Shown piece by piece: positions 24,028 through 55,152 of a DNA stretch of 64,000 nucleotides. Position numbers and translations under genes: made by a program. The stretch lies in IMG/VR virus record IMGVR_UViG_3300042554_002914; one strand, 5' to 3'. Numbering within the stretch: the stretch's first letter is position 1; each line of letters starts with the position of its first letter. The stretch is from a virus (Duplodnaviria > Heunggongvirae > Uroviricota > Caudoviricetes). The notes beneath the pieces were generated by a model. It did not search any database. It saw nothing but the letters and a program-made list of their open reading frames with translations, and was not told the origin of the DNA.

Positions 24028-25764
24028 TTAAGGGCTAAGTCTCGCTTTGTGGAGGCGCTTCTCCTTGTAGTAATTCCAGACATTTGGGGCCCATAGCGCT
24101 AATTCCGGAATAAAAGCATCACAAAGAGATTGGACCTCTAGTTGAGCATCTAGTTTTGCTCTGAGATCAATGAAGTGGAGGATTGAACGTAGGTTAAAAG
24201 AAACCACAAAGTTTTGACGAATGGCCTGTGCAAGGTAGTCGCGGATGTGTTCTTCGCACATTCCTTTAGCGTACCTATTGGCATACTTCTTACAGCCTGC
24301 TATAATCCAAGCGAATTCATCTTGTCTATCCTCTTCAGTCCAATCGTATTTTTTGCCTTGGCGGTTAGTATAGAAACCTGCCGGCCGTACATAAAATACA
24401 TCTTCAACATCAAGCTCACCTTCTGCAACTTTAATAACCCTCTTTCCCGTATATCTTTGAGATTGAACATCCCAAGAAGTTCCGATACGATGAGTCCTAC
24501 CTTGTGCCACAACACTGTGAACAAAACCGGCGCAGGAAAAAGTAATTTGAGGGTGCTCAAGACAATTTCCACAAATTGCAACCTTATTATTGCGTCTGAC
24601 AATAAGAGCGCCAGTGCTCACTGTTGCACAATGAATTTCACCCCTATAGTCTACCCATTCTTCAGTATAAGTTCTAGACCTGGATGTTTGAGTAATTTCA
24701 ACTCTAGGATAAATTCTATCTGTAACTCTCAAACAATAGAGGTCACTATGATTTTCATTACCCCTAGTTTCCGTGCTACAAGTAAATTTGAAATCGTTTA
24801 CTGCGGCAAGAGCCTGAAGTTGTGAAGCAAGATGATAAGAAGTCGTAGCATAAGCCCAGGTATTTCTACGAGTTGTCCCGTCAGAATTTCGTAAACCATC
24901 TAAAAGATTAGCAACGCAATCTTTTTCCATCTTTAAGTATTCATGCGGAAGAACTTTTGCCCCTGTTAGAGAAAGGCAATTAGACTTCATCCACTTTCCA
25001 ATATCTGGATGAGAAACAACAAACCTATCGTTTTCCGTTGGATAAAAATCTAGGTCTAATTCTAAACATAGATTCTGAAGATACTCAATCTTTCTTTCTC
25101 TTTTTAAATGAAACCGTAGTGTATTTGTACTAGTGTGAGCTTCTCCATCACCAATCCAAAACCCAACTAAGCTCCAGAAAACAGGATCATCAATTGGAGT
25201 GTCAATAGAACTTCTATGACTTTCAGAAAGGTTTCCACAAGTTGAATACCTGACAGGTTTATTGTAAACCTCTTCGGCTGCTATTGCATAACGTTGAGAC
25301 CAGCTTCCATCCTTTTTTCTAGTTTGAATAACCATTCGGTGATCAGGACTAACTAAAAAATCTAATGCCTGACCATTTAAATGATACATTTTTCCTTCGT
25401 AATCCCATCGTTGAACTGCAGAAGGTTTTTCAAAATTAATGACACCAGTATTGGTATTATAGGCAGCCAATACCGTCCCCTTGGTCACACTTGGCCAAAA
25501 TACCCATCCTTGTTCAGTCAGTACTTGGGTATCGGAGGAGTAGCAACCATAATGACCTCGTTCATTGGCTAAAAGTTCTCTTACAATCCACTCACCACAC
25601 TCTTGGGGGGATGGGGGTTTAATGTGATGTATGGGAACTTCTGAATAATCCCCTTTGCCTGCTTGCCAAATAACAGTTTCAGTTAGCTGATAGCCATCCA
25701 ACTTAACTACTTCTAATCGGGGGTCTAGCGACAACAAGTCACTTGATTTTACTGGTTTACTCAT
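24028..25764 (-). CDS. thyX: Flavin-dependent thymidylate synthase, intein-containing
   Basis: RGHYG-[intein]-CLEHP, QGRTHRIGTSWDVQSQRY, NLRSILHFIDLRAKLDAQLE. Confidence 0.95.
   Translation of the reverse strand: MSKPVKSSDLLSLDPRLEVVKLDGYQLTETVIWQAGKGDYSEVPIHHIKPPSPQECGEWIVRELLANERGHYGCYSSDTQVLTEQGWVFWPSVTKGTVLAAYNTNTGVINFEKPSAVQRWDYEGKMYHLNGQALDFLVSPDHRMVIQTRKKDGSWSQRYAIAAEEVYNKPVRYSTCGNLSESHRSSIDTPIDDPVFWSLVGFWIGDGEAHTSTNTLRFHLKRERKIEYLQNLCLELDLDFYPTENDRFVVSHPDIGKWMKSNCLSLTGAKVLPHEYLKMEKDCVANLLDGLRNSDGTTRRNTWAYATTSYHLASQLQALAAVNDFKFTCSTETRGNENHSDLYCLRVTDRIYPRVEITQTSRSRTYTEEWVDYRGEIHCATVSTGALIVRRNNKVAICGNCLEHPQITFSCAGFVHSVVAQGRTHRIGTSWDVQSQRYTGKRVIKVAEGELDVEDVFYVRPAGFYTNRQGKKYDWTEEDRQDEFAWIIAGCKKYANRYAKGMCEEHIRDYLAQAIRQNFVVSFNLRSILHFIDLRAKLDAQLEVQSLCDAFIPELALWAPNVWNYYKEKRLHKARLSP
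24565..25545 (-). mobile_element. Intein (327 aa) with LAGLIDADG endonuclease in ThyX
   Basis: Begins CYSSDTQVLT; block B VSPDH; endonuclease motifs LVGFWIGDG and LLDGLRNSDG; ends AICGN before extein Cys. Confidence 0.92.
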
Positions 25765-42672: not shown

Positions 42673-43869
42673 TTAATCCTTAGAATAGTCTTTGACTCCA
42701 TCATACAAAATGTCGATAACTTTGGCAGCGTCATTGTTTGATAGCTTGGCCCATGGGCCTTTCTTGTATGACTTCAGGGGCTGCCCAACCCTGGACACAA
42801 TCATATAGGTAATTTCGTTGTCGGAGATGCCGTGACTCCTGAGCGCATCGTAAACCCTGGGCAGATTGTCCCTCATTTTTAGCAAATTCTGGGGGGCATC
42901 CCCCTTGATTGACCCTTTATGTACTCCCATTTGGGGGTCTGTTTTTGATCTATGGTCCCCAGAGGTCAAGGGATCAGTTTTTCTAAGGTCGAAAGTCGAA
43001 CCTTTTGGTAAAAACCCCTTGTTGGTAAAAGCCCCCAGTGCTTCAGATAACGCTGCTTTGACGCTTTGCTGCGATAAGCCCATATCAACAAACCTGGACC
43101 TACCATTTTTATCGATCAATACGTTATCACTATGTGCATCGTTGTGAGCTATCCCGAGCCTATGGACCTGTGATCTCAAGAACCAGTAAGCATCTCCAAT
43201 GGATGTCTTTCCTACTTTGTCTGAAGACTTACTAAAGTTACCATAACTCTCACCTGGCACCAGTCCCATGACTATACGACCATTTATTATATAGACACCA
43301 CCCTCTGCCTTTGGTTTGCCTTTGGCTATTTCCCCATATATCAGTTTAGGACCTAAACCGGCTTTCCCTAAGATTTGAGTTATTTCCGCTTCCGTTGTAC
43401 TTACCTGGCCACGTTTAACGGCATAGCTCGGGTTTCCTTTTATCAAGAGCACAGTACCAAATCCACCTTCCCCTAATTTGGTTCCTTTACTTAGGGACCC
43501 GGACCAGTCAAATTGATCCTTAGTGCCATTAATGATCCTACCTACCTTGAAACTAGAATCAAAATCAGAAGCATCATCTCTGGCCCATTGTGTGTTACCA
43601 GTAATTATTTTTCCTGGCCTCTTGATTGACTCTTGATTTACTTTGGGTACAGATTTTGTGCTTGCTTTTGTGTTTGGTTTCACCCTCGCCAAGTAGTCTT
43701 CCAGACTTTCCTTGGCATCATCGATGAAACTAGCATCAATAGACCCGGATATACGGTCAATAGATTTAGATATGTTATCTCCAAAATCAACCCTACAAAC
43801 TTTTATTCGGGAGATGCACGTTGACCCACATGATTTTCCTATATCACACCTGTCCCCTTTACCAAACAC
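42673..43869 (-). CDS. Ser/Thr protein kinase-like protein with N-terminal Cys4 module
   Basis: LGEGGFGTV, YAVK, HNDAHSDNV, FVDMG; N-terminus RCDIGKSCGSTCISRIKVCRV. Confidence 0.88.
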   Translation of the reverse strand: MFGKGDRCDIGKSCGSTCISRIKVCRVDFGDNISKSIDRISGSIDASFIDDAKESLEDYLARVKPNTKASTKSVPKVNQESIKRPGKIITGNTQWARDDASDFDSSFKVGRIINGTKDQFDWSGSLSKGTKLGEGGFGTVLLIKGNPSYAVKRGQVSTTEAEITQILGKAGLGPKLIYGEIAKGKPKAEGGVYIINGRIVMGLVPGESYGNFSKSSDKVGKTSIGDAYWFLRSQVHRLGIAHNDAHSDNVLIDKNGRSRFVDMGLSQQSVKAALSEALGAFTNKGFLPKGSTFDLRKTDPLTSGDHRSKTDPQMGVHKGSIKGDAPQNLLKMRDNLPRVYDALRSHGISDNEITYMIVSRVGQPLKSYKKGPWAKLSNNDAAKVIDILYDGVKDYSKD

Positions 43870-43873
43870 GGAC

Positions 43874-44308
43874 TCAGCCCCCGTTTAGTAAAGTCTCTAG
43901 TCTAGCGATTCGGTTTGATACTGTGTCTATCTTTTCGGAATATGACAATTCTTCACCTGTGGCGATTCGGTGGTCATCGGTATTCTTTCTGGCCAGGTCC
44001 AGGGTGGCCATCTTGGCATCTATGTCTTCGCGCTTCTTGACTAGCTCCTTAACTTGCTTCATTTGTTCTTGCAAGGATTGAAACGCCCCCCTCTGACGGG
44101 AGATTTTCATTTTCTCGTTTAGGGACTCTATTTGGCTGGTTAAATCCGTATGCTTTTTCCCAAGGTCTCCATACTCGCTATAACTAGGTCGAAGGCCCAG
44201 GACTACTGTAGGCTCCATTACAGTACCTTTGGCATAATCTGTGGGCTTATGGGAATAAGCTTGGATCGCCTTATCGTATGCTTCTTTTGAGATTTTATCT
44301 TTTCTCAT
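43874..44308 (-). CDS. Hypothetical coiled-coil protein
   Basis: 144-aa ORF preceded by GGGTAAA. Confidence 0.65.
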   Translation of the reverse strand: MRKDKISKEAYDKAIQAYSHKPTDYAKGTVMEPTVVLGLRPSYSEYGDLGKKHTDLTSQIESLNEKMKISRQRGAFQSLQEQMKQVKELVKKREDIDAKMATLDLARKNTDDHRIATGEELSYSEKIDTVSNRIARLETLLNGG

Positions 44309-44337
44309 TTTAAGAGTCCATTATGTTTTCTTTTACC

Positions 44338-44727
44338 CTAATTGAAGTCGATGTTTTTTCTGGCCATAATATCCATGGCTTCATTCCATTTAAATCGATT
44401 CGACCACCAGGCCGATGAAGATGGCCCTTTAGCGATGTTCTTGGAGTGCCTAGACTTAAACTTTTTACGCTTCATCTTCATGCGTTCAGATTCACCTTCT
44501 TTAGGTGGCCCAGCAGTTTCTGCCCCCTTTTGGCCAAATTTCTTCAATTCTTCCTTACCGTCATGGCACCATTTGACCACATGGCTTTTTTCGTCGCCAG
44601 ATTTAGTAGGGCGTGGTTTATTACAAGCCATTTTAGACTTGTCATAAGTCTCCCCAAACTGCTCAGCAAACATGTTATAGAATGCCTCTAGGGCTTCATC
44701 GCTGAAATTTGCACTACCGTAAAGCAT
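44338..44727 (-). CDS. Hypothetical basic protein
   Basis: CNKPR...KSHVVK...KFGQ.G...F..RH...AWWS...W pattern; N-terminal NFSDEALEAF leader. Confidence 0.7.
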   Translation of the reverse strand: MLYGSANFSDEALEAFYNMFAEQFGETYDKSKMACNKPRPTKSGDEKSHVVKWCHDGKEELKKFGQKGAETAGPPKEGESERMKMKRKKFKSRHSKNIAKGPSSSAWWSNRFKWNEAMDIMARKNIDFN

Positions 44728-45143
44728 TACTCTTTCTCTCCATGTTTCAAATAGTCTGCAATTGCTGTTAAACTGTGGGAAGCTTCTGAAATTTTTGATG
44801 CTATCCAGGGGTCTGAGTTGCTATTGGGGGTGATCATTCCTAAGGAAGTGGCGATATTATCCTGCATTGATTTTAACTGAGTGATTAACATACCACCATT
44901 AGGTTCGAAATCAGCGTCCCCTTCCCCCATGATAAAAGTCGATGGTTTTGTGATGGGTTCTTTTTTCATACCGGGGGCAATGGCCATCTTATCCATTGGG
45001 GTAAGGTCGGGGTTTTGACCCCCTGATGCTTCACCAGATCTGGTAGTCCTGGGACCTTTAGCACCCTTGGCAGCATTCTCCACAAAATTCAAGTCAAAGC
45101 CCAAACCTTGGAGACGTCTCCAATCGTACTCAGAAATAGTCAT
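44727..45143 (-). CDS. Hypothetical protein with EYDWxRLQGLGFDLxFVE leader
   Basis: 138-aa ORF; C-terminal W..SKI..A...L..I.DYL. Confidence 0.7.
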   Translation of the reverse strand: MTISEYDWRRLQGLGFDLNFVENAAKGAKGPRTTRSGEASGGQNPDLTPMDKMAIAPGMKKEPITKPSTFIMGEGDADFEPNGGMLITQLKSMQDNIATSLGMITPNSNSDPWIASKISEASHSLTAIADYLKHGEKE

Positions 45144-45218
45144 TTTATCTCAGGAAGTAATTAATGTTACCCTGTGAGGGTTGGGGTCGTAATACTTGGG
45201 AATTAAATACCGCCATAC

Positions 45219-45937
45219 CTAGCGAGGCCACCATTTAAATAATTTCCGGAGTGGCGATGGCTGAATGAATCGTGTCCTCATGATTTCGGAAATTTCCAGG
45301 TACAGGTTTTCTAAGGTATCCTTATTGCTTTTTATTGTTAAATCAAATTTATTCCTTTCTTCAGTACCGTACTGAACTGACAAGATTCCAATTGGCAAAT
45401 TACCCACCTTAACCATCCTATTGTAGAAACAGTCAATCCCATTCCTAGACAGATAGTCCTTACAAGCTTGAGGCAATTCCTCACTAAATTTCACAGTCAA
45501 CCAATCATTTTCCTTAAGCATGGCTTCAATATCCCTTATGAAACTGCCTATTTGAATATCTTTTACCGGGGATGCCATAGCAGAACTATCTTTAGCTGTG
45601 TAGGTATTGGTAGTGGACATTTTTTGGAGGTGGTACCCCGTAAAATCAACTTGTCCATTATGGAAGGAACACAAAATAACCCTAGAAGCATTAGTTATGA
45701 TACCAATTTGAGCCAAACAAGTGTTGATTTCCTTTTCTTTCTCGATGTGATTTAGAAAGACATCTAGTTTATTTATAGTTCGGGGGGCAATCACCTTGGT
45801 AACAAGGGCCCAAAGGGCAAACCCAAGGACCAACACGGAATCGCCGGTAAAAGTGAAATTGACTGGGGCTTGGGGAGCAGGTTGCGGAGCAGGTTGCGGA
45901 GCAGGGGCCCCTTGACTGATATTATTTGGAGTGGTCA
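45219..45937 (-). CDS. Membrane-anchored GAF-like protein, possible T4-t-like holin (start about 45937)
   Basis: Single TM segment (SVLVLGFALWALV) followed by ASRVILCSFHNG...LPIGILSVQY GAF-like domain. Confidence 0.45.
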
Positions 45938-45951
45938 TAGAATTTGGTAAA

Positions 45952-46452
45952 TTATTTGGTTTTAGAGTGCTTTTTCCAAAGGTCGTTATCAGCCTGGCGA
46001 GCCTTACCAACTCCTGTAATAAATGAATTCACTCTGGCTAATGCCCATTGCTGCGGGGAAACTCCGGGCCGGTGACCGGAACGCCATGCTGCGATCCCTC
46101 TACTGTATACTTCTCCTAGGATACTAGCAGAAATTCCGGACTTCTCAGATTTTGCTTTTAGTGCCTTGCTAGACCCCTCTGAATACTTATCATCGAAGGC
46201 TTTAGTTGCGGGGGATTGAGGGATTTTTTCGTTTCTTTTCCTGAACTTATCGTCAGATTCCCAATCTTTGTATAGGTCTTTGGGTGATACTCCAGGGTCT
46301 TTAGCCTTTTGCATCGTTTCTTTAGCTTCTTCCTTGGCGATGGTTTGTTCCTTGGGGGTCAATCCTTTTTTATACCTAGCAGGTAGGGCCCTCTCTACAA
46401 ACTGCAAATCAAAGCCAAGACCCTGTAGGCGGTTCCAGTCGTATTCCATCAA
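45952..46452 (-). CDS. Hypothetical protein (DUF5824-like C-terminus) with EYDWxRLQGLGFDLxFVE leader
   Basis: L..KSEKSGIS..IL.EVY.RG.AAW..GHRPG....QWA.ARVNSF. Confidence 0.75.
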   Translation of the reverse strand: MMEYDWNRLQGLGFDLQFVERALPARYKKGLTPKEQTIAKEEAKETMQKAKDPGVSPKDLYKDWESDDKFRKRNEKIPQSPATKAFDDKYSEGSSKALKAKSEKSGISASILGEVYSRGIAAWRSGHRPGVSPQQWALARVNSFITGVGKARQADNDLWKKHSKTK

Positions 46453-47165
46453 TTGCCATCCGGTAAACCACTACCACCATTTTCAAGCCTTTGCCTGACA
46501 GTTTCCGGTAAACCAGATTCCCATTTGTTTTTGATTGCGATGCGGATGATGGCAGCCATAACCTTACGTGGATCAGCGGTGCGACCTACGGATGACCATG
46601 CAGCAGCGACATCTTGGGGGCTAGCGATTGGGAAAGACATTCCGGGGCCTGCGAATTCCCCCTTTGTTTTTCCTGCCTTTAGTTTTTCCCTGGACTCAGC
46701 ATCCCATTCCCTGAATTTTGCTGAATTGCTTGGCTTCGCGTTACATGAGTTACATTTACAATTACCCGACTGGCAAGACTTGCATTTATCTTCTTTGAAC
46801 GGTTGGGGAATTGACATCAGTTCGGTATCGTCTGCAAAGTTATATTCTTTTCTTTTAAGTTCTTTGAAAGAATCCATTCTAGCTTTGCGGCGACCCATGA
46901 TTTCCTTCATAGCATCTGCCCCGTCAGCGTGGCTATCATAGTCCCTATTGACTAGGTTGGCCCTCCGTTCTCGGATGGCCTTATTGCCCTTTAGAATAGC
47001 CTCCTTGTGCATCGACAAGCCACCTTCAGGGGTGGGGGACCATTTACGGCCGATTTTATTCCTTTTCATCAACTGATCAGTAGAAATGGCATTACTGGCA
47101 TTTAACTGTCCCCCGACACCCGGCAAGAGTACAGAGGAGAAATCCATGTGTTCTCCGTAAGGCAT
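46449..47165 (-). CDS. Hypothetical protein (probable start MPYGE at 47165)
   Basis: ORF with CxxCxxxxCxCxxC and C-terminal EFAGP..SFPI....DV.AAW; GGGTAAA lies about 25 nt upstream of 47165. Confidence 0.65.
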   Translation of the reverse strand: MPYGEHMDFSSVLLPGVGGQLNASNAISTDQLMKRNKIGRKWSPTPEGGLSMHKEAILKGNKAIRERRANLVNRDYDSHADGADAMKEIMGRRKARMDSFKELKRKEYNFADDTELMSIPQPFKEDKCKSCQSGNCKCNSCNAKPSNSAKFREWDAESREKLKAGKTKGEFAGPGMSFPIASPQDVAAAWSSVGRTADPRKVMAAIIRIAIKNKWESGLPETVRQRLENGGSGLPDGN

Positions 47166-47190
47166 AAGAGTAGTTAGAAACTTATTTCTT

Positions 47191-47511
47191 TTACCCTTTG
47201 CCTTCGGTATTTGCATCTGAGTTGCTATCTAAACTATTGTCCTTATTGTTTGACTTACCGGAACTCCCCTTGGCAGCCATCCCCAAAGCAGCAGCGGGTA
47301 CTAGCAACGCTAAGAAGACATTGGCTGCGGATTTGGCAGTTTCGGAGAAACTATCGGATATTTTTAAGCAAAAAGCTGAGTAGGAATCATTTGGTGATTT
47401 CCTTAGGTTATTGCGGCACGATATATTTTCATACCCTATCATGGCAATTTGTGCTACAAAAATAGCCACCAAAGCTCTGACTAAAAATGCTCTCTCGTTG
47501 AATTCTTTCAT
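47191..47511 (-). CDS. Hypothetical two-TM membrane protein
   Basis: Two hydrophobic helices flanking a Cys-containing loop. Confidence 0.6.
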   Translation of the reverse strand: MKEFNERAFLVRALVAIFVAQIAMIGYENISCRNNLRKSPNDSYSAFCLKISDSFSETAKSAANVFLALLVPAAALGMAAKGSSGKSNNKDNSLDSNSDANTEGKG

Positions 47512-47561
47512 TGCCCTTCAGCGAATCTACTTAGATTTACCCTTTGCTGACTGGTTAATTC

Positions 47562-47741
47562 TTAAAGGTAACGCATCCCCTCAATTACTTCGGGAGATAC
47601 CGAGCCTGAACTCTTTAATTCTTGGGCTGCCTTAAGGAGGGTTTGGGCCTTTTCTAAATCAGCAGGGTCTCTGCGGGCGACTTTATAAGCCCCCATTAAT
47701 TTTTGGTATTTTTTATCGGATTCAGACATTTTGCTTGCCAT
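47562..47741 (-). CDS. Small helical protein (59 aa), candidate kinase partner/immunity protein
   Basis: Manual translation MASKMSESDKKYQKLMGAYKVARRDP...VIEGMRYL; TGATG coupling to the upstream kinase-tail remnant. Confidence 0.6.
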   Translation of the reverse strand: MASKMSESDKKYQKLMGAYKVARRDPADLEKAQTLLKAAQELKSSGSVSPEVIEGMRYL

Positions 47742-47774
47742 CAGACCTTGTCGTATAGAAGGTCAATGTATTTC

Positions 47775-48050
47775 TTAGGGTTTTGCTAGGGGCTTCGCTG
47801 CGGACTTCTTAGCCGGGGATACCTTTTGAACTTTCTTAATTGCTTCAACAGCTTTATTTAGGCCCATGTTTAAAGACCAGGGGATATCAACCATGCAAAC
47901 ATGGTATCTCGGGATGCAGGATGCTCCGCAAGATTTCCCTTTGTTGCACTTTTTTCTTTTTAATTTGGGCAAATTGAGGCCGCCTAGTCTGGCTATTTGG
48001 CCTCTTTTTGCGGTATTAATTTCAGCTTCCGTTTTTCCCAGGGGTGCCAT
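47775..48050 (-). CDS. Cys4-module protein, apparently an internally deleted kinase paralogue
   Basis: KKCNKGKSCGASCIPRYHVCMV; followed out of frame by KYIDLLYDKV* (47773-47741), similar to the kinase tail KVIDILYDGV. Confidence 0.65.
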   Translation of the reverse strand: MAPLGKTEAEINTAKRGQIARLGGLNLPKLKRKKCNKGKSCGASCIPRYHVCMVDIPWSLNMGLNKAVEAIKKVQKVSPAKKSAAKPLAKP

Positions 48051-48086
48051 TGAATTCAGGGTATTTATGCTTTAAATTTACCCAAT

Positions 48087-48779
48087 TTATTCCTTGTCGT
48101 TGTATTCCCCGTCTTCATCATCATCGTCATCGTCCGAGTCTTCATCGCCACCTTCGCTAAGGATCTCATCGATCAGGGTATCAATTTCATCTTCATTTAG
48201 TTCTTCTTCACCTTCGACTTCGGACTCCTCATAAGGGTCTTCTTCGTATTGGGTTTCGTTGTCGTTGCTGTTGTCGTTGTCGTCAGAGTCACTTTCTGCG
48301 TCATCGTCAGAATCGCTCTCATCCGAACCCCAAATCTCTTCAGAAAGGCGTTTAAATTCTTCATCGGTTAGGAATGTTGAGTTTTCATCTGAATCTTTAA
48401 TATCATCGGCATCTTCGGCATCTTCGGCATCTTCATCAACTTCTTCGGCACCATCTCCCGGGCTAGCCGGAAAATAATCGTCTGGATTAAATGGCTGGTT
48501 GGGTTTAAAGTCACGGGACATACCATCATTGGCTTTCCAGAGCCCGGTATGCTCAATCCAGGGAGATGTATTATGAACTACGTTAGTTGGCAACCCATTA
48601 ATGGGGTCAATTTCGTGATCTTCAGGGTTTGACAATTGAGCTGCATAAGCTGCGCGGAAAGCTTCAATAGCATCCTGTTCAAAATCGCCGTTGATTCTAT
48701 TCGTCATTTGTTTAAGGGTCGGTACTTGAATGTTTAAGTGTTGGGGGGGAGGGGTTTGGGGTGTTGGGCCCTGGTCCAT
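48087..48779 (-). CDS. Highly acidic hypothetical protein
   Basis: C-terminal half is dominated by D/E; GDFEQDAIEAF leader. Confidence 0.7.
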   Translation of the reverse strand: MDQGPTPQTPPPQHLNIQVPTLKQMTNRINGDFEQDAIEAFRAAYAAQLSNPEDHEIDPINGLPTNVVHNTSPWIEHTGLWKANDGMSRDFKPNQPFNPDDYFPASPGDGAEEVDEDAEDAEDADDIKDSDENSTFLTDEEFKRLSEEIWGSDESDSDDDAESDSDDNDNSNDNETQYEEDPYEESEVEGEEELNEDEIDTLIDEILSEGGDEDSDDDDDDEDGEYNDKE

Positions 48780-48878
48780 TCAGCTTTCAGTTTTTAGGCC
48801 TATTTCAGCAAATGTTGAAAGTGTGCCCCGAGACCTACTTAGACCAATGATTATTACCCATCGTGCTGGCGGTAGGGG

Positions 48879-49220
48879 TCACCACTTTTCAATTTTACCG
48901 GAAATATCTTGCAATAATTTGCTATTGCCTTGAAGTTCCTCTTCATATTGTCTTATGGTGGCCTTGACTTCAGCCTTTAATTTACCCTCTTTAATGAGAC
49001 GTTCCTTTCTCTCATCGTCAGTTTCTTCCTTTTCAGCGTGATTTCCGTCAGCATCGTCAGCATCATCAATAACCACGGGGTGAATCTCATGAGTTAACCT
49101 ATCTAGGAGTTTATCCATAGAGTCTTTCAACCCCCTTCTACACACTGAATCGGCAGAAATTTCCATGGGGCCGCAAGGAATCCTGTATAAGTCTCTAATT
49201 TTAGCCTCAGTTTTGTCCAT
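48879..49220 (-). CDS. Hypothetical protein
   Basis: 113-aa ORF in operon order. Confidence 0.6.
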   Translation of the reverse strand: MDKTEAKIRDLYRIPCGPMEISADSVCRRGLKDSMDKLLDRLTHEIHPVVIDDADDADGNHAEKEETDDERKERLIKEGKLKAEVKATIRQYEEELQGNSKLLQDISGKIEKW

Positions 49221-49221
49221 G

Positions 49222-49557
49222 TCAAGCCCCTTCTCTAGGTTTTAAAATCCATTCATTTTCGTAATCCGTGTAATGGATACCTTTTCTTTTTTCTAATCTT
49301 CTGGCAGGGTCTTTCTTGTTGGCTTCCCTCATACCGTTTACCATGATGTCCCGCATGGCCCTAAGTTTTTCCTTTGGCACTTCACAGTGTGGGCTGTCCC
49401 TGTAGCTTCTATACCATTTACAAACTTCTGAGGGATCATCAGATTGTAACATCATGTTCCAGATTCCCATTTCTTGGCTACCGGTTAGCGTACCCACTGG
49501 TAATTTACCTTCTAGGTCTTCACGGGGTGGCCTATTAAATCTTGTGTCTCTTCTCAT
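49222..49557 (-). CDS. Hypothetical protein
   Basis: 111-aa ORF in operon order. Confidence 0.6.
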   Translation of the reverse strand: MRRDTRFNRPPREDLEGKLPVGTLTGSQEMGIWNMMLQSDDPSEVCKWYRSYRDSPHCEVPKEKLRAMRDIMVNGMREANKKDPARRLEKRKGIHYTDYENEWILKPREGA

Positions 49558-49736
49558 TGGGTAGCTACCAGTAGGGCTTCCATTAGTTCATTTTTGATAA
49601 ACTCAGATGACTCCATGTCCCCTCTTTTTCCCTCTAAATCAGACAAGGCAGACAAGGCTTTTGCATATTTATCGAAGTTTTCTTTATCGGAAGGTGCCTT
49701 ACGAATTAAGGCCTGGGCTTTTTCGATGCTATCCAT
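49554..49736 (-). CDS. Small helical protein (60 aa), candidate immunity partner of the metallopeptidase
   Basis: Starts 3 nt after the peptidase stop codon. Confidence 0.55.
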   Translation of the reverse strand: MDSIEKAQALIRKAPSDKENFDKYAKALSALSDLEGKRGDMESSEFIKNELMEALLVATQ

Positions 49737-49739
49737 AGT

Positions 49740-50543
49740 TTACCTCAGTAAGTTCCCTTCCCTTAGAACAGACTCCACCAGTTCATATTCCGCTGGAAAA
49801 AGTTTTTTCATTTTGGGTCCAGCGAATATGTAACTTGAAAATAGCTCAGCATAGTGCTCTAGTTGATTTGTTTTACTGTATGTGCTAACTCTTTTGAAGC
49901 TATCGGGAATTCCAACTTCTTTCGCTTTGAAGTGAGCGTGGTGCCCTAGTTCGTGGACTAACGTCACCAGTGTATTATTGCTGGCTGACCCTGGAGCTTT
50001 ACCCATAGTGTGTGGCAGTTCTTTACCTTGGGCGGCACTGGATAAGTGCTTTTCGGCAGTGGCCTTTATTTTCTTTACTTGCGGGGTAAACCCCTGAGCT
50101 GACCGAATAACTGTGACCCCTTCTTTATACGCTAACCCGCCCCAAGTCTTATTGTAGATTTTCTGCGAGATGGTGAAATCTGGGTTTTTGAAGTACCCTG
50201 AAAATGCGCTTCTGAAGGCTTCTTTGTTGCCTGCAATGTCCTTCCAGTCCATGAATAGGGTCTTAGTCTTATTGAAAATCCTCTGGAGAACTTCTACTCT
50301 GCGGGGGGCGTCTGGGTCCAGGGTTTTTAAATCCCGGATGGCACCCATGATGGAGTTCCTGTTAAAGTCTATCTTTAAGTCAGGGTGAGCTTTTACTTCG
50401 CCACTTCTCATTAGCTTGATGAATTTCCCAAGGGAATCTGCAATATATGGGCTTAATTCAACTCTGCAAACTAAACCCCGTTGAATGCAAGTTGAGCGAC
50501 AAGATTTCCCTAAAGAACATCTTTTCTTCCCGGACCCCCCCAT
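49740..50543 (-). CDS. Zincin (HExxH) metallopeptidase-like protein with N-terminal Cys4 module
   Basis: LVHELGHHAH...VSTYSKTNQLEHYAELF; N-terminus RCSLGKSCRSTCIQRGLVCRV. Confidence 0.82.
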   Translation of the reverse strand: MGGSGKKRCSLGKSCRSTCIQRGLVCRVELSPYIADSLGKFIKLMRSGEVKAHPDLKIDFNRNSIMGAIRDLKTLDPDAPRRVEVLQRIFNKTKTLFMDWKDIAGNKEAFRSAFSGYFKNPDFTISQKIYNKTWGGLAYKEGVTVIRSAQGFTPQVKKIKATAEKHLSSAAQGKELPHTMGKAPGSASNNTLVTLVHELGHHAHFKAKEVGIPDSFKRVSTYSKTNQLEHYAELFSSYIFAGPKMKKLFPAEYELVESVLREGNLLR

Positions 50544-50722
50544 CTCTGGGGTGCGCCTAGGTGCTGAATGGTTCCTGCAATTGCAAAATCAAATTCTTTA
50601 GGGTTATCTATTTCGATCATTAGTCCTCGTACCTGCCTATGGGGAATTTAATAGATGACGGGGTATATAGTAGTCCATGAATAAGATTTACCCAGGGTCA
50701 CACTAACTCCCCCCCCTATCCA

Positions 50723-51544
50723 TTAAGCTTCGTATGCCTCCAAGATTTCTGCTATGATGCCGTTCCTGACGATGTCCCCTCTTTCAAATTTAACTCTCCC
50801 CACCCCTCTAATGGAGGAAAGCCGGTGATAGCAATCTAAAAGTCCATTTTCAGGTTTAAATACATCTAGGTCAATTTGCCTTGTGTCACCCGTAATGACA
50901 ACTTTCGAGTCTTTTCCAACCCTACTGAGGACGGTTTTAACATTTTCTGGTAATGAATTTTGGGCCTCATCAAAAAGAATTAGGCACTCATTTAGTGATC
51001 TCCCCCTCAAATCCTCTAGGAGTGTGGGTTCTACAATCTTTTTATCTACAAGGTAATCCGCAGCCCCCTTGCTTCTAGTCATTACAACCAAATTGTCATA
51101 AACAGGTCCCACCAGTGGCTTCATTTTTTCTTCCAGGGTTCCAGGAAGAGCCCCCCTATTTCTTTGGTGAGAACAGCCTACGTCACTTCTAATGTAATAA
51201 ATTTTTTGAATGTTACCCTTAGAAATTTCACTCAATCCCCACCATAGCGCCACTAAGGTTTTTCCAACTCCTGATGGGCCTATAGCAATGGTGACTGTAT
51301 TCTTATTTAAAGAAGACCACAAGTCCTCCTGATGGTTTGTTTTCGGGTAAAAGGGTAGAACATCCATTCCCCTATAAGAGTGCTCAACCATTTGGGCGGA
51401 CTCTGCGCGGCGCGATTTGCGCTTGTCTTTTGATCTCAACATTTGGTAAAGAGGGTTAATGACAACTGTGGATAACGTGTATGCTTCGTTGCTAATTTGG
51501 ATTACATGATCCTCACCCCCTTCTAAACTAATAGGCAGAGTCAT
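50723..51544 (-). CDS. phoH: PhoH-like ATPase
   Basis: IGPSGVGKT, GALPGTLEEK, LRGRSL, DEAQN, SRVG..SK..ITGD..QID, DIVR. Confidence 0.95.
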   Translation of the reverse strand: MTLPISLEGGEDHVIQISNEAYTLSTVVINPLYQMLRSKDKRKSRRAESAQMVEHSYRGMDVLPFYPKTNHQEDLWSSLNKNTVTIAIGPSGVGKTLVALWWGLSEISKGNIQKIYYIRSDVGCSHQRNRGALPGTLEEKMKPLVGPVYDNLVVMTRSKGAADYLVDKKIVEPTLLEDLRGRSLNECLILFDEAQNSLPENVKTVLSRVGKDSKVVITGDTRQIDLDVFKPENGLLDCYHRLSSIRGVGRVKFERGDIVRNGIIAEILEAYEA

Positions 51545-51923: not shown

Positions 51924-53336
51924 TCAGGTAACGATGGGTAGTAGTTGACTGTAGCTAACTAAGATTGCACACATGGTATCGGACGGGGGCCCCAATGGAA
52001 TCTGGGGGTCATCACATCTATTCAAAGTGCTTTGGATATTAGGATTGGAAGATTTCACTCTCCCTGAGTCTAGCATATGGGAGATAACGTTTAATGTGGG
52101 TTGTCTCGGCTTGCTACCTACGCAAACGTTTAACCCTAAGCCCTGTAGGTACACAGTCCAAGCTGCACTTACCATGGCGGATTCAAGTACAATTTCTTCC
52201 GCTTCGTATGCCTTAACTGCTAGGCTTAGGATTACTCCGACAGTTTTCAAGTCCCAATTGCCTTCGTAAGTGTCAAGGACATACATGTAGTCCCTTTTCT
52301 TTGTAACCCCTGCGATGCAAATACCTGTTTTATCAATGCTGCCGGCACTGAAAGCAGGATCAACAGAAATAATTACTTTATCTAATGGGGGGATTTTCGG
52401 TGTCGGTGAGCATCCCTTATAGAGCCAGGAGAACTTTTCATCGCCGATATTCCTTCTAATATGGTTCAGATTTTCGGGGGACCAGTAGGAATTGATTCTA
52501 CTCAAGGTTTCCCCTACATTCCTACCAAGAATGTCAGCCTCTGCCTCTTCTTTACTTTCGATAATTGCTGACAAATTAATGTGGACGGCTCCTTTCGGGT
52601 TTGATACGGGGTCGAAAACACCGAATTTATCTAAGAAGTAGCCGAAAATGTCTTCATCGCCCCATCTTGACCCAAAAACAACTATGGCACTGTTTTGGTG
52701 GCGCCGGGTCATAATTTCCTTTTCTATCCAGTCTTTATTTACTGTCATATTTGAGGACTTGTGATAGTCATCGATTAACCAAACCCCTGGTACCCCGTTG
52801 GGTCCACCCCAAGGTGAACGATACCCGTGCGTACGCCAGGGGATGTTAGCCGATGTTACGCTATCAGCCCGCAAATCAAGTTTTGAAAACAATTCCTCAA
52901 AAGGAAAGGCACTAACCAACTGCTTAACTCTACTTACTGCTAAGTCGGTGATACCCCCATTGTAAGAAGTTACGAAATGGTTAGTATCAGGATCTTTCCC
53001 CAGGAGCCAAGACAGAAATAGGGAGCCCAATGTAGACTTCCCAGTACGAGGAGGCATCGATACTAAGAGGATTGGGTACCTGCCTTCGGCAATGTCTTCA
53101 AAGGCGGACCCCAAGACTTCATAAGTTTCCCAATTTAGCAAGGAGTCTGTGCCTTCCGTGGCGCGAGACAAATAGCAAGGGAAACTATATTGGGCGCACT
53201 CTTTAATGTAGTCATTAATTATTTCCTTAGTCGCGCCTCTCATTTCAAGTTCAAGAAGTCCCCTCCTATACTTTCTCCAGCTTGAATGTTCCGATAGCTG
53301 GGAAGCGTGTGTTATTTTCGGGTGTTTTGGTGTCAT
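51924..53336 (-). CDS. terL: Terminase large subunit paralogue (divergent, 470 aa)
   Basis: Walker A PPRTGKS, Walker B WLIDD, RW..DIFG, nuclease ISVDPA; same N-terminus as 53422..55152. Confidence 0.8.
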   Translation of the reverse strand: MTPKHPKITHASQLSEHSSWRKYRRGLLELEMRGATKEIINDYIKECAQYSFPCYLSRATEGTDSLLNWETYEVLGSAFEDIAEGRYPILLVSMPPRTGKSTLGSLFLSWLLGKDPDTNHFVTSYNGGITDLAVSRVKQLVSAFPFEELFSKLDLRADSVTSANIPWRTHGYRSPWGGPNGVPGVWLIDDYHKSSNMTVNKDWIEKEIMTRRHQNSAIVVFGSRWGDEDIFGYFLDKFGVFDPVSNPKGAVHINLSAIIESKEEAEADILGRNVGETLSRINSYWSPENLNHIRRNIGDEKFSWLYKGCSPTPKIPPLDKVIISVDPAFSAGSIDKTGICIAGVTKKRDYMYVLDTYEGNWDLKTVGVILSLAVKAYEAEEIVLESAMVSAAWTVYLQGLGLNVCVGSKPRQPTLNVISHMLDSGRVKSSNPNIQSTLNRCDDPQIPLGPPSDTMCAILVSYSQLLPIVT

Positions 53337-53421: not shown

Positions 53422-55152
53422 TCAGAGCGATAACCCATAACCAGTGTCATCCCTATTGAGGCGAGGTCTGGAAAAAGACTCTGGACCGATAAAACCAGAA
53501 CCAGAATCTAAATTATTGTAAAGTCCAGCCGAAGGTAAATTCCTCCCTACTCTACCAGTAGGTAAATTTGAATTACCCAAGAATGGCCTTCTGTTTCCTC
53601 CGCTCCACCTCCTCGCTTGTATTATAGCATCTTGTATCCCACGGTCAACGGTGTCTAGCTTCATCGCATAGTACGTCAGGGACCACACAAACGCATCCAC
53701 CGAGTCATCGTGCTTAACGAAGGGGAATCCTGTTAGCTCCTTAATAAAACTATCTACCCATAACCCCTCAACAAGTTTAACCCTGTCATTCTCTAAGAGT
53801 GGGCAAACAGCTTCGAGTCTAACCGTTTTTGACCTAAGGGGTCTCATTTCTTCTACAGGTATTTTTGTTTCCCGTCTCAACATTTGTATCAAAGATTGGC
53901 CGGATGCTGCCTTTTCGATACAGATTACTTTTGGTTTGTAGAAGGAATGTAGTTGCTTAATAGAGGCAATCAAGTCCGGGAAGCCCCATCTCCCTTTAAC
54001 GATTTCCCTAATGTAAACAGTTCTGGGATCTCTAGTCGAAATTCCAGCCACACAGACCGCAGTTTCGTCTGCACCTTCTTTTTCAGAAAACGCACAGTCT
54101 ACACCCAGCCATACTACATCTAGTGGTGGGCACTTTTTTTCTTCTACCATGGCGATCCATCCGGCCTTTACAATTTGACCTTCTGCTGCAGTTGGAGTTC
54201 CCTGATAAAGGGCCGCAAATTTGGAACTGCCCATAGTTTTCTTTTGGGCCTCCAGCATATCAATCGAGAATGCCGGGTTATCAGGCCAATGGGACTCACC
54301 GATTTGCCTGCCTAAGGGGTCATCGACGGGGTCTTCACACAGGCCCGCAATATTCACCCATCTCCAACCTTCCGGGTTTTCTTCCTCATCATAGCTGCCG
54401 TCCGATTCTAAAACCTGGCCATGCAAATCATTGGCATGAAACCTGGTCGCAATAATTAGACGGCAATAATTGTTAGTTTTACGTGTCGATGCCTCTTCTT
54501 GCCACCACGTTTGGAGACTCTCAAAAGCCCTGGCAGAAGCTGAGCTTTTCAGTGGGTCGTCGATTACCATGGCCCCCACACCTGGGCTAATAATGTTTAC
54601 AGACCCTGCCGTATGGCCAGTCAACACACCACCGACAGAAGTAGGCAGGATGTATCCGCCACTAAGCATCTCAAATTTAGAATCCTTGGCAAAACCTTTC
54701 CAATCGGGGAAGATTTTCTTAAAGACAGGTGTCTTCAACATGCCGATAACTTCCTTATGGAACTTATTGGACAGTGATAAACCATAAGAGGCAATAACGT
54801 GTTGAGTTTCTTGATCTCTCCCTAGTAACCAAGCCACAAACATTGATGCCAGCATTGATTTACCAGATCGAGGAGGACAGGATACGATCAAGTTATGGTA
54901 GCGTTTATTTGCTAGATCCTCAAAACCACTGGCAATAATTTCATGGAAATCCGCGACCTTTAACGCACCACCCTTCATTAAGTCTGCAAAAGCCAGGAAA
55001 CAATACCTAGAAGACTCAAACATGTAGTTCTGAATGACAGAGTTTGGTGCTTCTAAGACATTAAGATGATGTAAACCCCTAATGTAATGGCGCCATGAGC
55101 TGTGCTCATCTAGTTGACTAGCGTGGTTTATTATCGGCCGTGGGAGTGTCAT
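53422..55152 (-). CDS. terL: Terminase large subunit (576 aa)
   Basis: PPRSGKS, VGGVLTG, VIDDP, TRFH..DL.G, LYQG.P, GVDCA, IEKAASG, FP..KHDDSVDA. Confidence 0.93.
   Translation of the reverse strand: MTLPRPIINHASQLDEHSSWRHYIRGLHHLNVLEAPNSVIQNYMFESSRYCFLAFADLMKGGALKVADFHEIIASGFEDLANKRYHNLIVSCPPRSGKSMLASMFVAWLLGRDQETQHVIASYGLSLSNKFHKEVIGMLKTPVFKKIFPDWKGFAKDSKFEMLSGGYILPTSVGGVLTGHTAGSVNIISPGVGAMVIDDPLKSSASARAFESLQTWWQEEASTRKTNNYCRLIIATRFHANDLHGQVLESDGSYDEEENPEGWRWVNIAGLCEDPVDDPLGRQIGESHWPDNPAFSIDMLEAQKKTMGSSKFAALYQGTPTAAEGQIVKAGWIAMVEEKKCPPLDVVWLGVDCAFSEKEGADETAVCVAGISTRDPRTVYIREIVKGRWGFPDLIASIKQLHSFYKPKVICIEKAASGQSLIQMLRRETKIPVEEMRPLRSKTVRLEAVCPLLENDRVKLVEGLWVDSFIKELTGFPFVKHDDSVDAFVWSLTYYAMKLDTVDRGIQDAIIQARRWSGGNRRPFLGNSNLPTGRVGRNLPSAGLYNNLDSGSGFIGPESFSRPRLNRDDTGYGLSL

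Follow-up and report, generated by a model that had tools for sequence, protein, structure and literature searches.

Three open reading frames (ORFs) in a stretch of viral DNA raise the question of why a kinase-like protein, a metallopeptidase-like protein and a short protein with no enzyme domain should all begin with the same four-cysteine (Cys4) module. The stretch, of 64,000 nucleotides (nt) and here called the window, belongs to IMG/VR record IMGVR_UViG_3300042554_002914, a 129,961-bp viral record judged 46% complete, and among cultured phages Synechococcus phage S-CBWM1 (Aokuangvirus) is the one nearest to it. An initial annotation had proposed that the module is fused to interchangeable enzymes, that it may load them into the virion and that small downstream genes accompany them. 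The best explanation, which on balance is probable, is that the module is a shared N-terminal handle on enzymes that are carried in the virion into the host.

The three ORFs lie on the minus strand as originally described, and encode proteins of 398 amino acids (aa; 42673..43869), 91 aa (47775..48050) and 267 aa (49740..50543). The back-translated motif C-x2-G-K-S-C-x3-C-I-x6-C, which runs from the first to the fourth cysteine of each protein (43795..43848, 47895..47948 and 50466..50519, respectively, all on the minus strand), is matched exactly three times in the window and not once in 100 dinucleotide-preserving shuffles. Beyond the window, the record contains two further copies, in a 455-aa kinase and a 150-aa module-only protein, and the resulting five ORFs are paralogues of one uncatalogued cyanophage family. 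Alignment shows that the cysteine motif is the core of a conserved unit of about 45 residues, which comprises in many cases a basic helix, then a Lys/Arg patch before the first cysteine, the cysteine core itself (in relaxed form C-x2-G-K-S-C-x3-C-[IV]-x6-C, with the four cysteines invariant) and C-x-[VIL]-[DE]-[LIF]-P followed by a segment to K-[VA]. The AlphaFold2 (AF2) model of the 91-aa protein, built from a 146-sequence alignment, has a helix, a short β-hairpin containing the second and third cysteines, and a second helix, with a predicted local distance difference test score (pLDDT) of 69.9. The cysteine core of the family is thereby predicted to form a short β-hairpin that precedes the conserved L-P...K-[VA] helix.

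The same back-translated motif occurs at 59 loci in IMG/VR contigs (about 57 distinct ORFs, often two to five per contig) and has only seven matches in 596 Gb of prokaryote genomes, which by our own estimate is approximately the chance rate. A 42-position profile of the module retrieved 630 clusters at E<=1e-3, 121 of them at E<=1e-10, from 1.84 billion protein representatives. Among the matches listed, the module is nearly always N-terminal, with a median start at residue 29, and the only cultured phages matching the profile are S-CBWM1, with five copies, and the Aphanizomenon siphovirus vB_AphaS-CL131 (CL131). Scans of Pfam, NCBIfam and PHROGs found no family for the module, for the peptidase domain or for the two small ORFs considered below (s59 and s60), nor any DNA-binding family match for the module, and a feature search of the ESM Atlas with the 91-aa protein gave no usable match. 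The status of the module as a genuine domain, conserved and so far uncatalogued, is supported.

The enzymes behind the module are indeed interchangeable, and they extend beyond the kinase and the peptidase of the window, because profile and Pfam scans found at least six unrelated enzyme classes joined to it, mostly Ser/Thr-kinase-like. A check on whether the module might occur only on the two domains seen in the window came out in favour of modularity, since HNH, ADP-ribosyltransferase (ART), Zeta_toxin and lipase partners were found. The Pfam partners are Pkinase/APH/ABC1/RIO, HNH_4, Zeta_toxin, ADPrib_exo_Tox/ART and alpha/beta-hydrolase/lipase, to which the M34-like peptidase described below is added; the proteins of the HNH-containing class have 414-620 aa, and further modules precede several classes without a known domain or nothing at all. 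The tallies of partners and positions rest on the best 150 of the 630 profile matches, and 97 of these 150 proteins fell into the kinase cluster in BLAST clustering, some short members being joined to it only via the linker. Several contigs contain module-only proteins of 145-150 aa that end in Lys/Ala/Pro-rich tails. Each module protein of the window has one enzyme domain at most, and giant proteins in CL131 (L082, 2149-8573) and in P0135 / L078 have three to four Cys4 modules alternating with alpha/beta-hydrolase or lipase-like domains. The contig around the giant P0135 protein contains only giant ORFs, one of them with a DnaJ domain. No Pfam match to a MuF (SPP1 gp7 / Mu gp30) or secretion-system N-terminal domain was found in the 41 + 66 members scanned.

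Evidence that module-bearing proteins reach the virion comes from the two cultured phages. The five profile matches of S-CBWM1 are gp106, gp174, gp162 and upstream extensions of gp113 and gp161. The gp106 protein belongs to the HNH class and is encoded directly after PhoH; gp174, which resembles the HNH class and is encoded between the portal/peptidase genes and the capsid gene, has the GenBank product name 'virion structural protein'; and gp162 is an APH-like kinase. The deposited starts of gp113 (RIO-like; 70464-71324) and gp161 (ChoK-like; 117887-118702) in MG450654.1 lie inside the Cys4 module, and in-frame ATG codons 51 and 54 nt upstream of these starts restore a complete module (L075:14566-14760 and L001:11050-11220), which indicates that the deposited starts truncate it. 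The profile match just upstream of the annotated starts ruled out a reading in which gp113 and gp161 have no module and virion association would not require one. The S-CBWM1 virion kinases named in a citing paper (PMC10665884) are exactly its three module-bearing kinases, and the module-less PknB-like gp173 is not named there; the tie between these kinases and the module was previously hidden because two start codons had been mis-set. Four of the five S-CBWM1 module proteins thus have a virion assignment, by annotation or by report.

The CL131 proteins ORF048 and ORF047 are both encoded next to the tape measure gene; ORF048, of 1811 aa, contains four modules in alternation with lipase-like domains, and ORF047 a single module. 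Both are among the 23 proteins in the table of CL131 virion proteins detected with liquid chromatography-tandem mass spectrometry, in which ORF048 is represented by 105 unique peptides and 54.6% coverage (PMC6293099). Across these two unrelated cultured cyanophages, six of the seven module proteins are virion-associated. The presence of module-bearing relatives in virions is therefore reasonably supported, by annotation and reports for S-CBWM1 and by mass spectrometry for CL131. The earlier proposal that the module marks virion-loaded proteins fits the virion proteins of both phages, and from this association we infer the part of that proposal that concerns the role of the module itself.

A family member, as we would draw it, comprises an optional basic helix with a Lys/Arg patch, the four-cysteine core, a low-complexity linker and one interchangeable enzyme domain or none. 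Such proteins would be late products that travel in the particle and enter the host together with the DNA. The module would act as the common handle that brings the enzymes into the particle, possibly through binding to a partner in the core or scaffold, to packaged DNA or to other copies of the module. The kinase and the M34-like peptidase may then act on host proteins, in takeover or counter-defence.

The 398-aa protein (42673..43869, minus strand) consists of the N-terminal Cys4 module, a linker and a Ser/Thr-kinase-like domain, whose translation contains a glycine loop, an AVK (β3) lysine, an H-N-D...N catalytic loop and D-M-G. It matches Pkinase at E 2.7e-6 with 27.4 bits, under the 31.7 cutoff, has the PHROG label 'kinase' and gives tblastn matches to annotated cyanophage kinases at 25-34% identity. 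Its gene lies directly upstream of a gene for a 1607-aa baseplate/fibre-like protein, the same position as that of the RIO-like kinase gp113 of S-CBWM1. In the close relatives L041 (1708-2902), L058 and L042, the kinase gene is split into two overlapping frames, and the peptidase gene is likewise split in the close relative L055 (6564-7365); these splits could be either real decay or an assembly frameshift.

The 91-aa protein (47775..48050, minus strand) is composed of a basic helix, a basic patch, the Cys4 core, a second helix and a short Lys/Ala/Pro-rich tail, as judged from the AF2 model and alignment to relatives. It aligns with residues 1-95, the module and linker, of a 399-aa module-kinase of relatives at 64% identity. 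DNA identity to the full-length relative L013 covers 48100-47868 and resumes (93.5%) at 47778, and about 890 nt of the kinase core are gone from this region. By these alignments, the 91-aa ORF is a kinase gene minus its catalytic core, in a deletion form that is common to one other contig, L055. The initial annotation saw a kinase-tail remnant in the ORF, but its own frame contains no kinase tail, and the leftover of the 3′-end of the deleted gene is a stretch of approximately 37 nt after the stop codon (47742..47778, minus strand).

The HELGH metallopeptidase originally recognized in the 267-aa protein (49740..50543, minus strand) has a confident fold, an M34 fold match and invariant active-site-like residues, though no Pfam match at E<=0.1. 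Behind the Cys4 module, residues ~46-267 form an M34-like HExxH metallopeptidase domain with the fold of lethal factor (LF) and the Pro-Pro endopeptidases (PPEP), as judged from the predicted fold and from homologues. The pLDDT is above 90 across most of residues 50-267. The model matches the catalytic domain of anthrax LF (residues 572-776) with Z 11.8 and a root-mean-square deviation of 3.4 Å over 169 aligned residues at ~14% identity, and the Pro-Pro endopeptidase PPEP-1 with Z about 9; the Foldseek E-value of the fold match is 3e-3. Six homologues, down to 23% identity, all retain H197, E198, H201, Y222, E229 and E233, which make up H-E-x-x-H, a Tyr with a Glu seven residues after it, and A-E; we take these residues to correspond to the active-site residues of LF. 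A deeper homologue search for the domain returned three proteins only. The M34 enzymes LF and PPEP-1/Zmp1 resemble the 267-aa protein in fold, in H-E-x-x-H, and in the downstream Tyr/Glu and A-E, whereas the N-terminal LF-type domains are absent from it. The HELGH domain is thus best called a putative M34-like gluzincin, and its targets are likely to be cyanobacterial proteins.

Small ORFs immediately after two of the module genes are present as the initial annotation stated: s60 (60 aa; 49554..49736, minus strand) after a gap of 3 nt behind the peptidase gene, and s59 (59 aa; 47562..47741, minus strand) after a gap of 33 nt behind the 91-aa ORF. The absence of such a gene next to the intact kinase, already conceded at that time, was also found. 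The extension of the small downstream gene to the family as a whole did not hold, because a tight small downstream ORF follows 19% of module genes versus a background of 14% of other genes of >=110 aa, by a comparison that uses crude gene calls, and the HNH class, the 398-aa kinase and, on its downstream side, the 455-aa kinase have no tight small downstream gene. Moreover, s59 and s60 are unrelated to each other, and a search for kinase homology within s59 found none. Conserved pairings are only two: s60 goes with the peptidase, and the s59 family with some kinases.

In each of the three lineages of the peptidase class, a tightly coupled ORF of 60-67 aa comes after the peptidase gene, the gaps being 3, -1 and -4 nt. 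Copies of s60 in close relatives are 93-97% identical, and those in L045/L063, where the peptidase is 40% identical, are about 48-50% identical; in the L056 lineage the downstream ORF has 67 aa and no detectable similarity to s60. Among the fetched loci, s60 homologues are confined to those that bear the peptidase. The slot after PhoH in relatives holds either a module-HNH gene followed by the gene o111, or a module-peptidase gene followed by s60 and then o111. Because the HNH-class relatives run straight to o111 and s60 is found only with the peptidase, peptidase and s60 behave as one cassette. The backbone gene o111 (111 aa; 49222..49557, minus strand), identified by its gene neighbourhood in relatives, follows the PhoH-proximal module gene in many of them irrespective of the enzyme carried. 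In relatives, the s59 family always adjoins a module-kinase, on the downstream side of the 399/434-aa and 345-aa types and on the upstream side of the 455-aa type, and s59 is retained in the window though its kinase is deleted. An s59 paralogue precedes the 455-aa kinase outside the window (G000 73043-73222; L005:1201-1380); before this paralogue lie a 75-aa ORF (L005:923-1150), which is similar to the small ORF that follows the module-kinase of L007, and, upstream, an endolysin-like gene. Prediction of a complex of the peptidase domain (46-267) with s60, both supplied as alignments, gave a score of 0.00, which is below the mark but, as controls were not run, speaks neither for nor against binding. 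The s60 product is probably a cognate partner of the peptidase, an inhibitor or a chaperone, which would be specific to this class and reflect no family-wide rule.

Several observations weigh against the view that the module is a handle for carriage in the virion. The link between module and packaging is a correlation in two phages; the virion evidence comes from the relatives S-CBWM1 and CL131, the present contig being known from its genes alone, and the S-CBWM1 kinase data are second-hand, through the citing paper. Two virion kinases of T4-like cyanophages, S-CREM2 gp14 and S-CRM01 gp130, have no module, which means that kinases can reach virions without it. The module itself is predicted with moderate confidence only, at a pLDDT of about 70 alone and 46-53 within the full-length peptidase model, and its model from the 91-aa protein found no usable structural match among ~48,000 PDB representatives (best Z 3.1). 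Module-only proteins are common, and the module may therefore have a function of its own. A few small bacterial proteins have C-x2-G-K-[SP]-C-G-x2-C-I-x6-C behind Sec or lipoprotein signal peptides, their homology to the phage module being unproven; look-alikes of the module are a 46-aa Sphingobium lipoprotein-like protein (L070:3405-3545), a 140-aa Thiodiazotropha protein with an SH3b_T domain (L068:1008-1430) and a 120-aa metagenomic protein with two motif copies (P0096). Their position behind signal peptides hints at a disulfide knot with some other role. Even so, a shared handle on virion-carried enzymes is the explanation that we prefer. A more specific version of it, in which the module is a self-sufficient, transferable loading handle for the head core or packaged DNA across morphologies (S-CBWM1-like myoviruses and CL131-like siphoviruses) and the cargo is released in the host cytoplasm, perhaps on reduction of the cysteines or loss of metal, is put forward tentatively and is open to considerable doubt.

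It is rather unlikely that the module is a putative metal-binding knuckle with a basic patch that, after infection or expression, anchors the enzymes to nucleic acid or to a single common hub of the host (nucleoid, RNA polymerase or ribosome), their occurrence in virions being due to other determinants or to packaged DNA. The four invariant cysteines, the Lys/Arg patch just before the first of them and the basic helix would suit such a role, as would the resemblance of the Lys/Ala/Pro-rich tails of module-only proteins to histone H1 tails and the conservation of module-only forms in several contigs. However, the expected substrates of the partner enzymes (proteins, DNA and lipids) are very different, which argues against a single host docking site; no fold or DNA-binding family was matched; and the cysteine spacing lacks the C-x2-C pairs that are typical of zinc knuckles and ribbons. 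This departure from classical zinc sites, together with the fact that the bacterial look-alikes are exported and would form disulfides, would accord with a redox or metal switch that keeps the enzymes inactive in the oxidizing particle or outside the cell and frees them in the reducing, light-dependent cytoplasm of cyanobacteria. Because long flexible linkers separate the module from the enzymes, allosteric control is unlikely, and this is the least probable of all the readings. The conserved pairing of peptidase and small ORF with its short gaps, the restriction of s60 to peptidase loci, the cassette-like replacement of an HNH-class C-terminus by peptidase and s60 at one slot, the occurrence of s59 beside module-kinases in three arrangements, its survival as an orphan after kinase loss, and the existence of a Zeta_toxin partner domain would all fit a true polymorphic toxin-immunity system, in which the enzymes are toxins against competing phages or cells and are neutralized by s60 (peptidase) and s59 (kinases). 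That system is nevertheless improbable, given that small ORFs are abundant in phage genomes and not generally enriched after module genes, that the HNH class and two of the kinases do without one, that s59 and s60 are unrelated, and that the contigs are of lytic type with these genes in the structural block and with no MuF or secretion domain. Still less probable is a structural role of the module proteins in the head core or the tail, as scaffold-like components or in association with the tape measure, in which the module serves assembly or oligomerization and the enzymes are secondary additions. The location of the S-CBWM1 gp174 gene at the usual scaffold position, between the protease and capsid genes, its annotation as structural, and the abundance in virions of CL131 ORF047/ORF048, encoded next to the tape measure gene, point that way, but most members are kinases or other enzymes with intact catalytic motifs, and copy number and content vary among close relatives, with truncations and deletions, which is unlike essential structural genes.

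The module genes lie within a morphogenesis block that runs from terminase to baseplate, in which the minus strand holds all genes from about 58,000 down to 16,700. The block contains the terminase, a terminase-like paralogue, PhoH, small genes, the 1607-aa protein, which matches the S-CBWM1 'baseplate wedge' gene, and more giant fibre-like proteins. The true large terminase (576 aa, Terminase_6C; 53422-55152, minus strand) and the paralogue (470 aa; 51924-53336, minus strand), which has ~30% identity to the terminase of relatives and no Pfam match, are both conserved in related contigs, and the PhoH-like gene (50723..51544, minus strand) forms the upstream edge of the variable slot. The order terminase - PhoH - module gene - o111 ... 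kinase - baseplate gene is common to the window and S-CBWM1, and megablast of the region against cultured phages gave no match. Between two of the module genes lies a gene for an extremely acidic 230-aa protein with long Asp/Glu/Ser runs (48087-48779), which is kept in relatives at 58-90% identity and has no family match; it might be scaffold-like or mimic DNA. The neighbouring minus-strand ORFs 44727-45143 (138 aa) and 45952-46452 (166 aa) have another N-terminal motif in common, which is ~20 residues long (Y-D-W-x-R-L-Q-G-L-G-F-D-L-x-F-V-E). In the 166-aa protein there is DUF5824, as well as a match to the C-terminal end of a PHROG with the annotation cytidyltransferase, and a protein of that name (ORF154) is listed among the S-CREM2 virion proteins (PMC10665884); the motif may be a second shared leader on virion cargo. 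The ThyX (Thy1) gene at 24028-25764 has a LAGLIDADG domain within the same ORF, which suggests an intein.

This analysis adds a correction of two S-CBWM1 starts, proteomic support from CL131, the M34-like assignment, the swap at the slot after PhoH and a negative answer on a general small-gene rule. In hundreds of cyanophage lineages, the module flags kinases, ADP-ribosyltransferases, nucleases, peptidases and lipases, and it would explain why kinases recur in cyanophage virion proteomes. It may also provide a sequence-based means to list candidate injected effectors in environmental viromes, and is a candidate tag for protein delivery into cyanobacteria. In one study, a phage kinase is reported to be able to disarm bacterial defences broadly (PMC13645617), so that the dominant kinase cargo is of direct interest.

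Related kinase domains are present in purified particles of the cyanophages S-CRM01, S-TIM5, S-CREM2 and S-CBWM1 (PMC10665884), those of the T4-like phages without the Cys4 module. Polyvalent proteins (Iyer et al., 2017; PMC5512222) have the same effector repertoire of protein kinases, ARTs, zincin-like peptidases and nucleases and the same predicted delivery with DNA, but unite two to fifteen disparate domains per chain, whereas the window proteins have one enzyme domain behind one module; that paper mentions neither the cysteine module nor cyanophages. The giant proteins CL131 ORF048 and P0135 recall polyvalent proteins, but repeat one enzyme type. In the MuF toxins of temperate phages (Jamet et al., 2017; PMC5576092) and in polymorphic toxin systems (Zhang et al., 2012; PMC3482391), as here, a constant N-terminus tied to virion incorporation precedes variable toxic or enzymatic C-termini, sometimes with a small downstream gene. 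The Cys4 family has the conserved N-terminal domain and the diverse, exchanged C-termini of polymorphic toxins, as in the cassette swap at the PhoH-proximal slot, but neither an immunity gene after each toxin nor a MuF or secretion N-terminal domain; it also differs from these systems in its lytic-looking contigs, its dominance by kinases and its class-specific small gene. The capsid targeting sequence (CTS) proteins IPI, IPII, IPIII and Alt of T4 resemble the module family in that a common N-terminal element stands on unrelated proteins, and their cargo, which includes an ADP-ribosyltransferase, is packed in the head, is delivered with the DNA and varies as a set between related phages (PMC9026906). 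The CTS is a propeptide of ~10 residues without cysteines that is cut by the prohead protease, whereas the Cys4 module has about 45 residues with four invariant cysteines and, unlike the CTS, also occurs in a siphovirus, adjoining the tape measure gene. A C-x-[VIL]-[DE] string at and after the fourth cysteine may be set beside the T4 cleavage rule, after L/I-x-E, the module being far longer. Known models of virion-cargo selection are few, namely the T4 CTS, MuF fusions and the N4 RNA polymerase, and if the Cys4 module is indeed a transferable handle, it would join the T4 CTS and MuF as a third, independent means of loading virion cargo.

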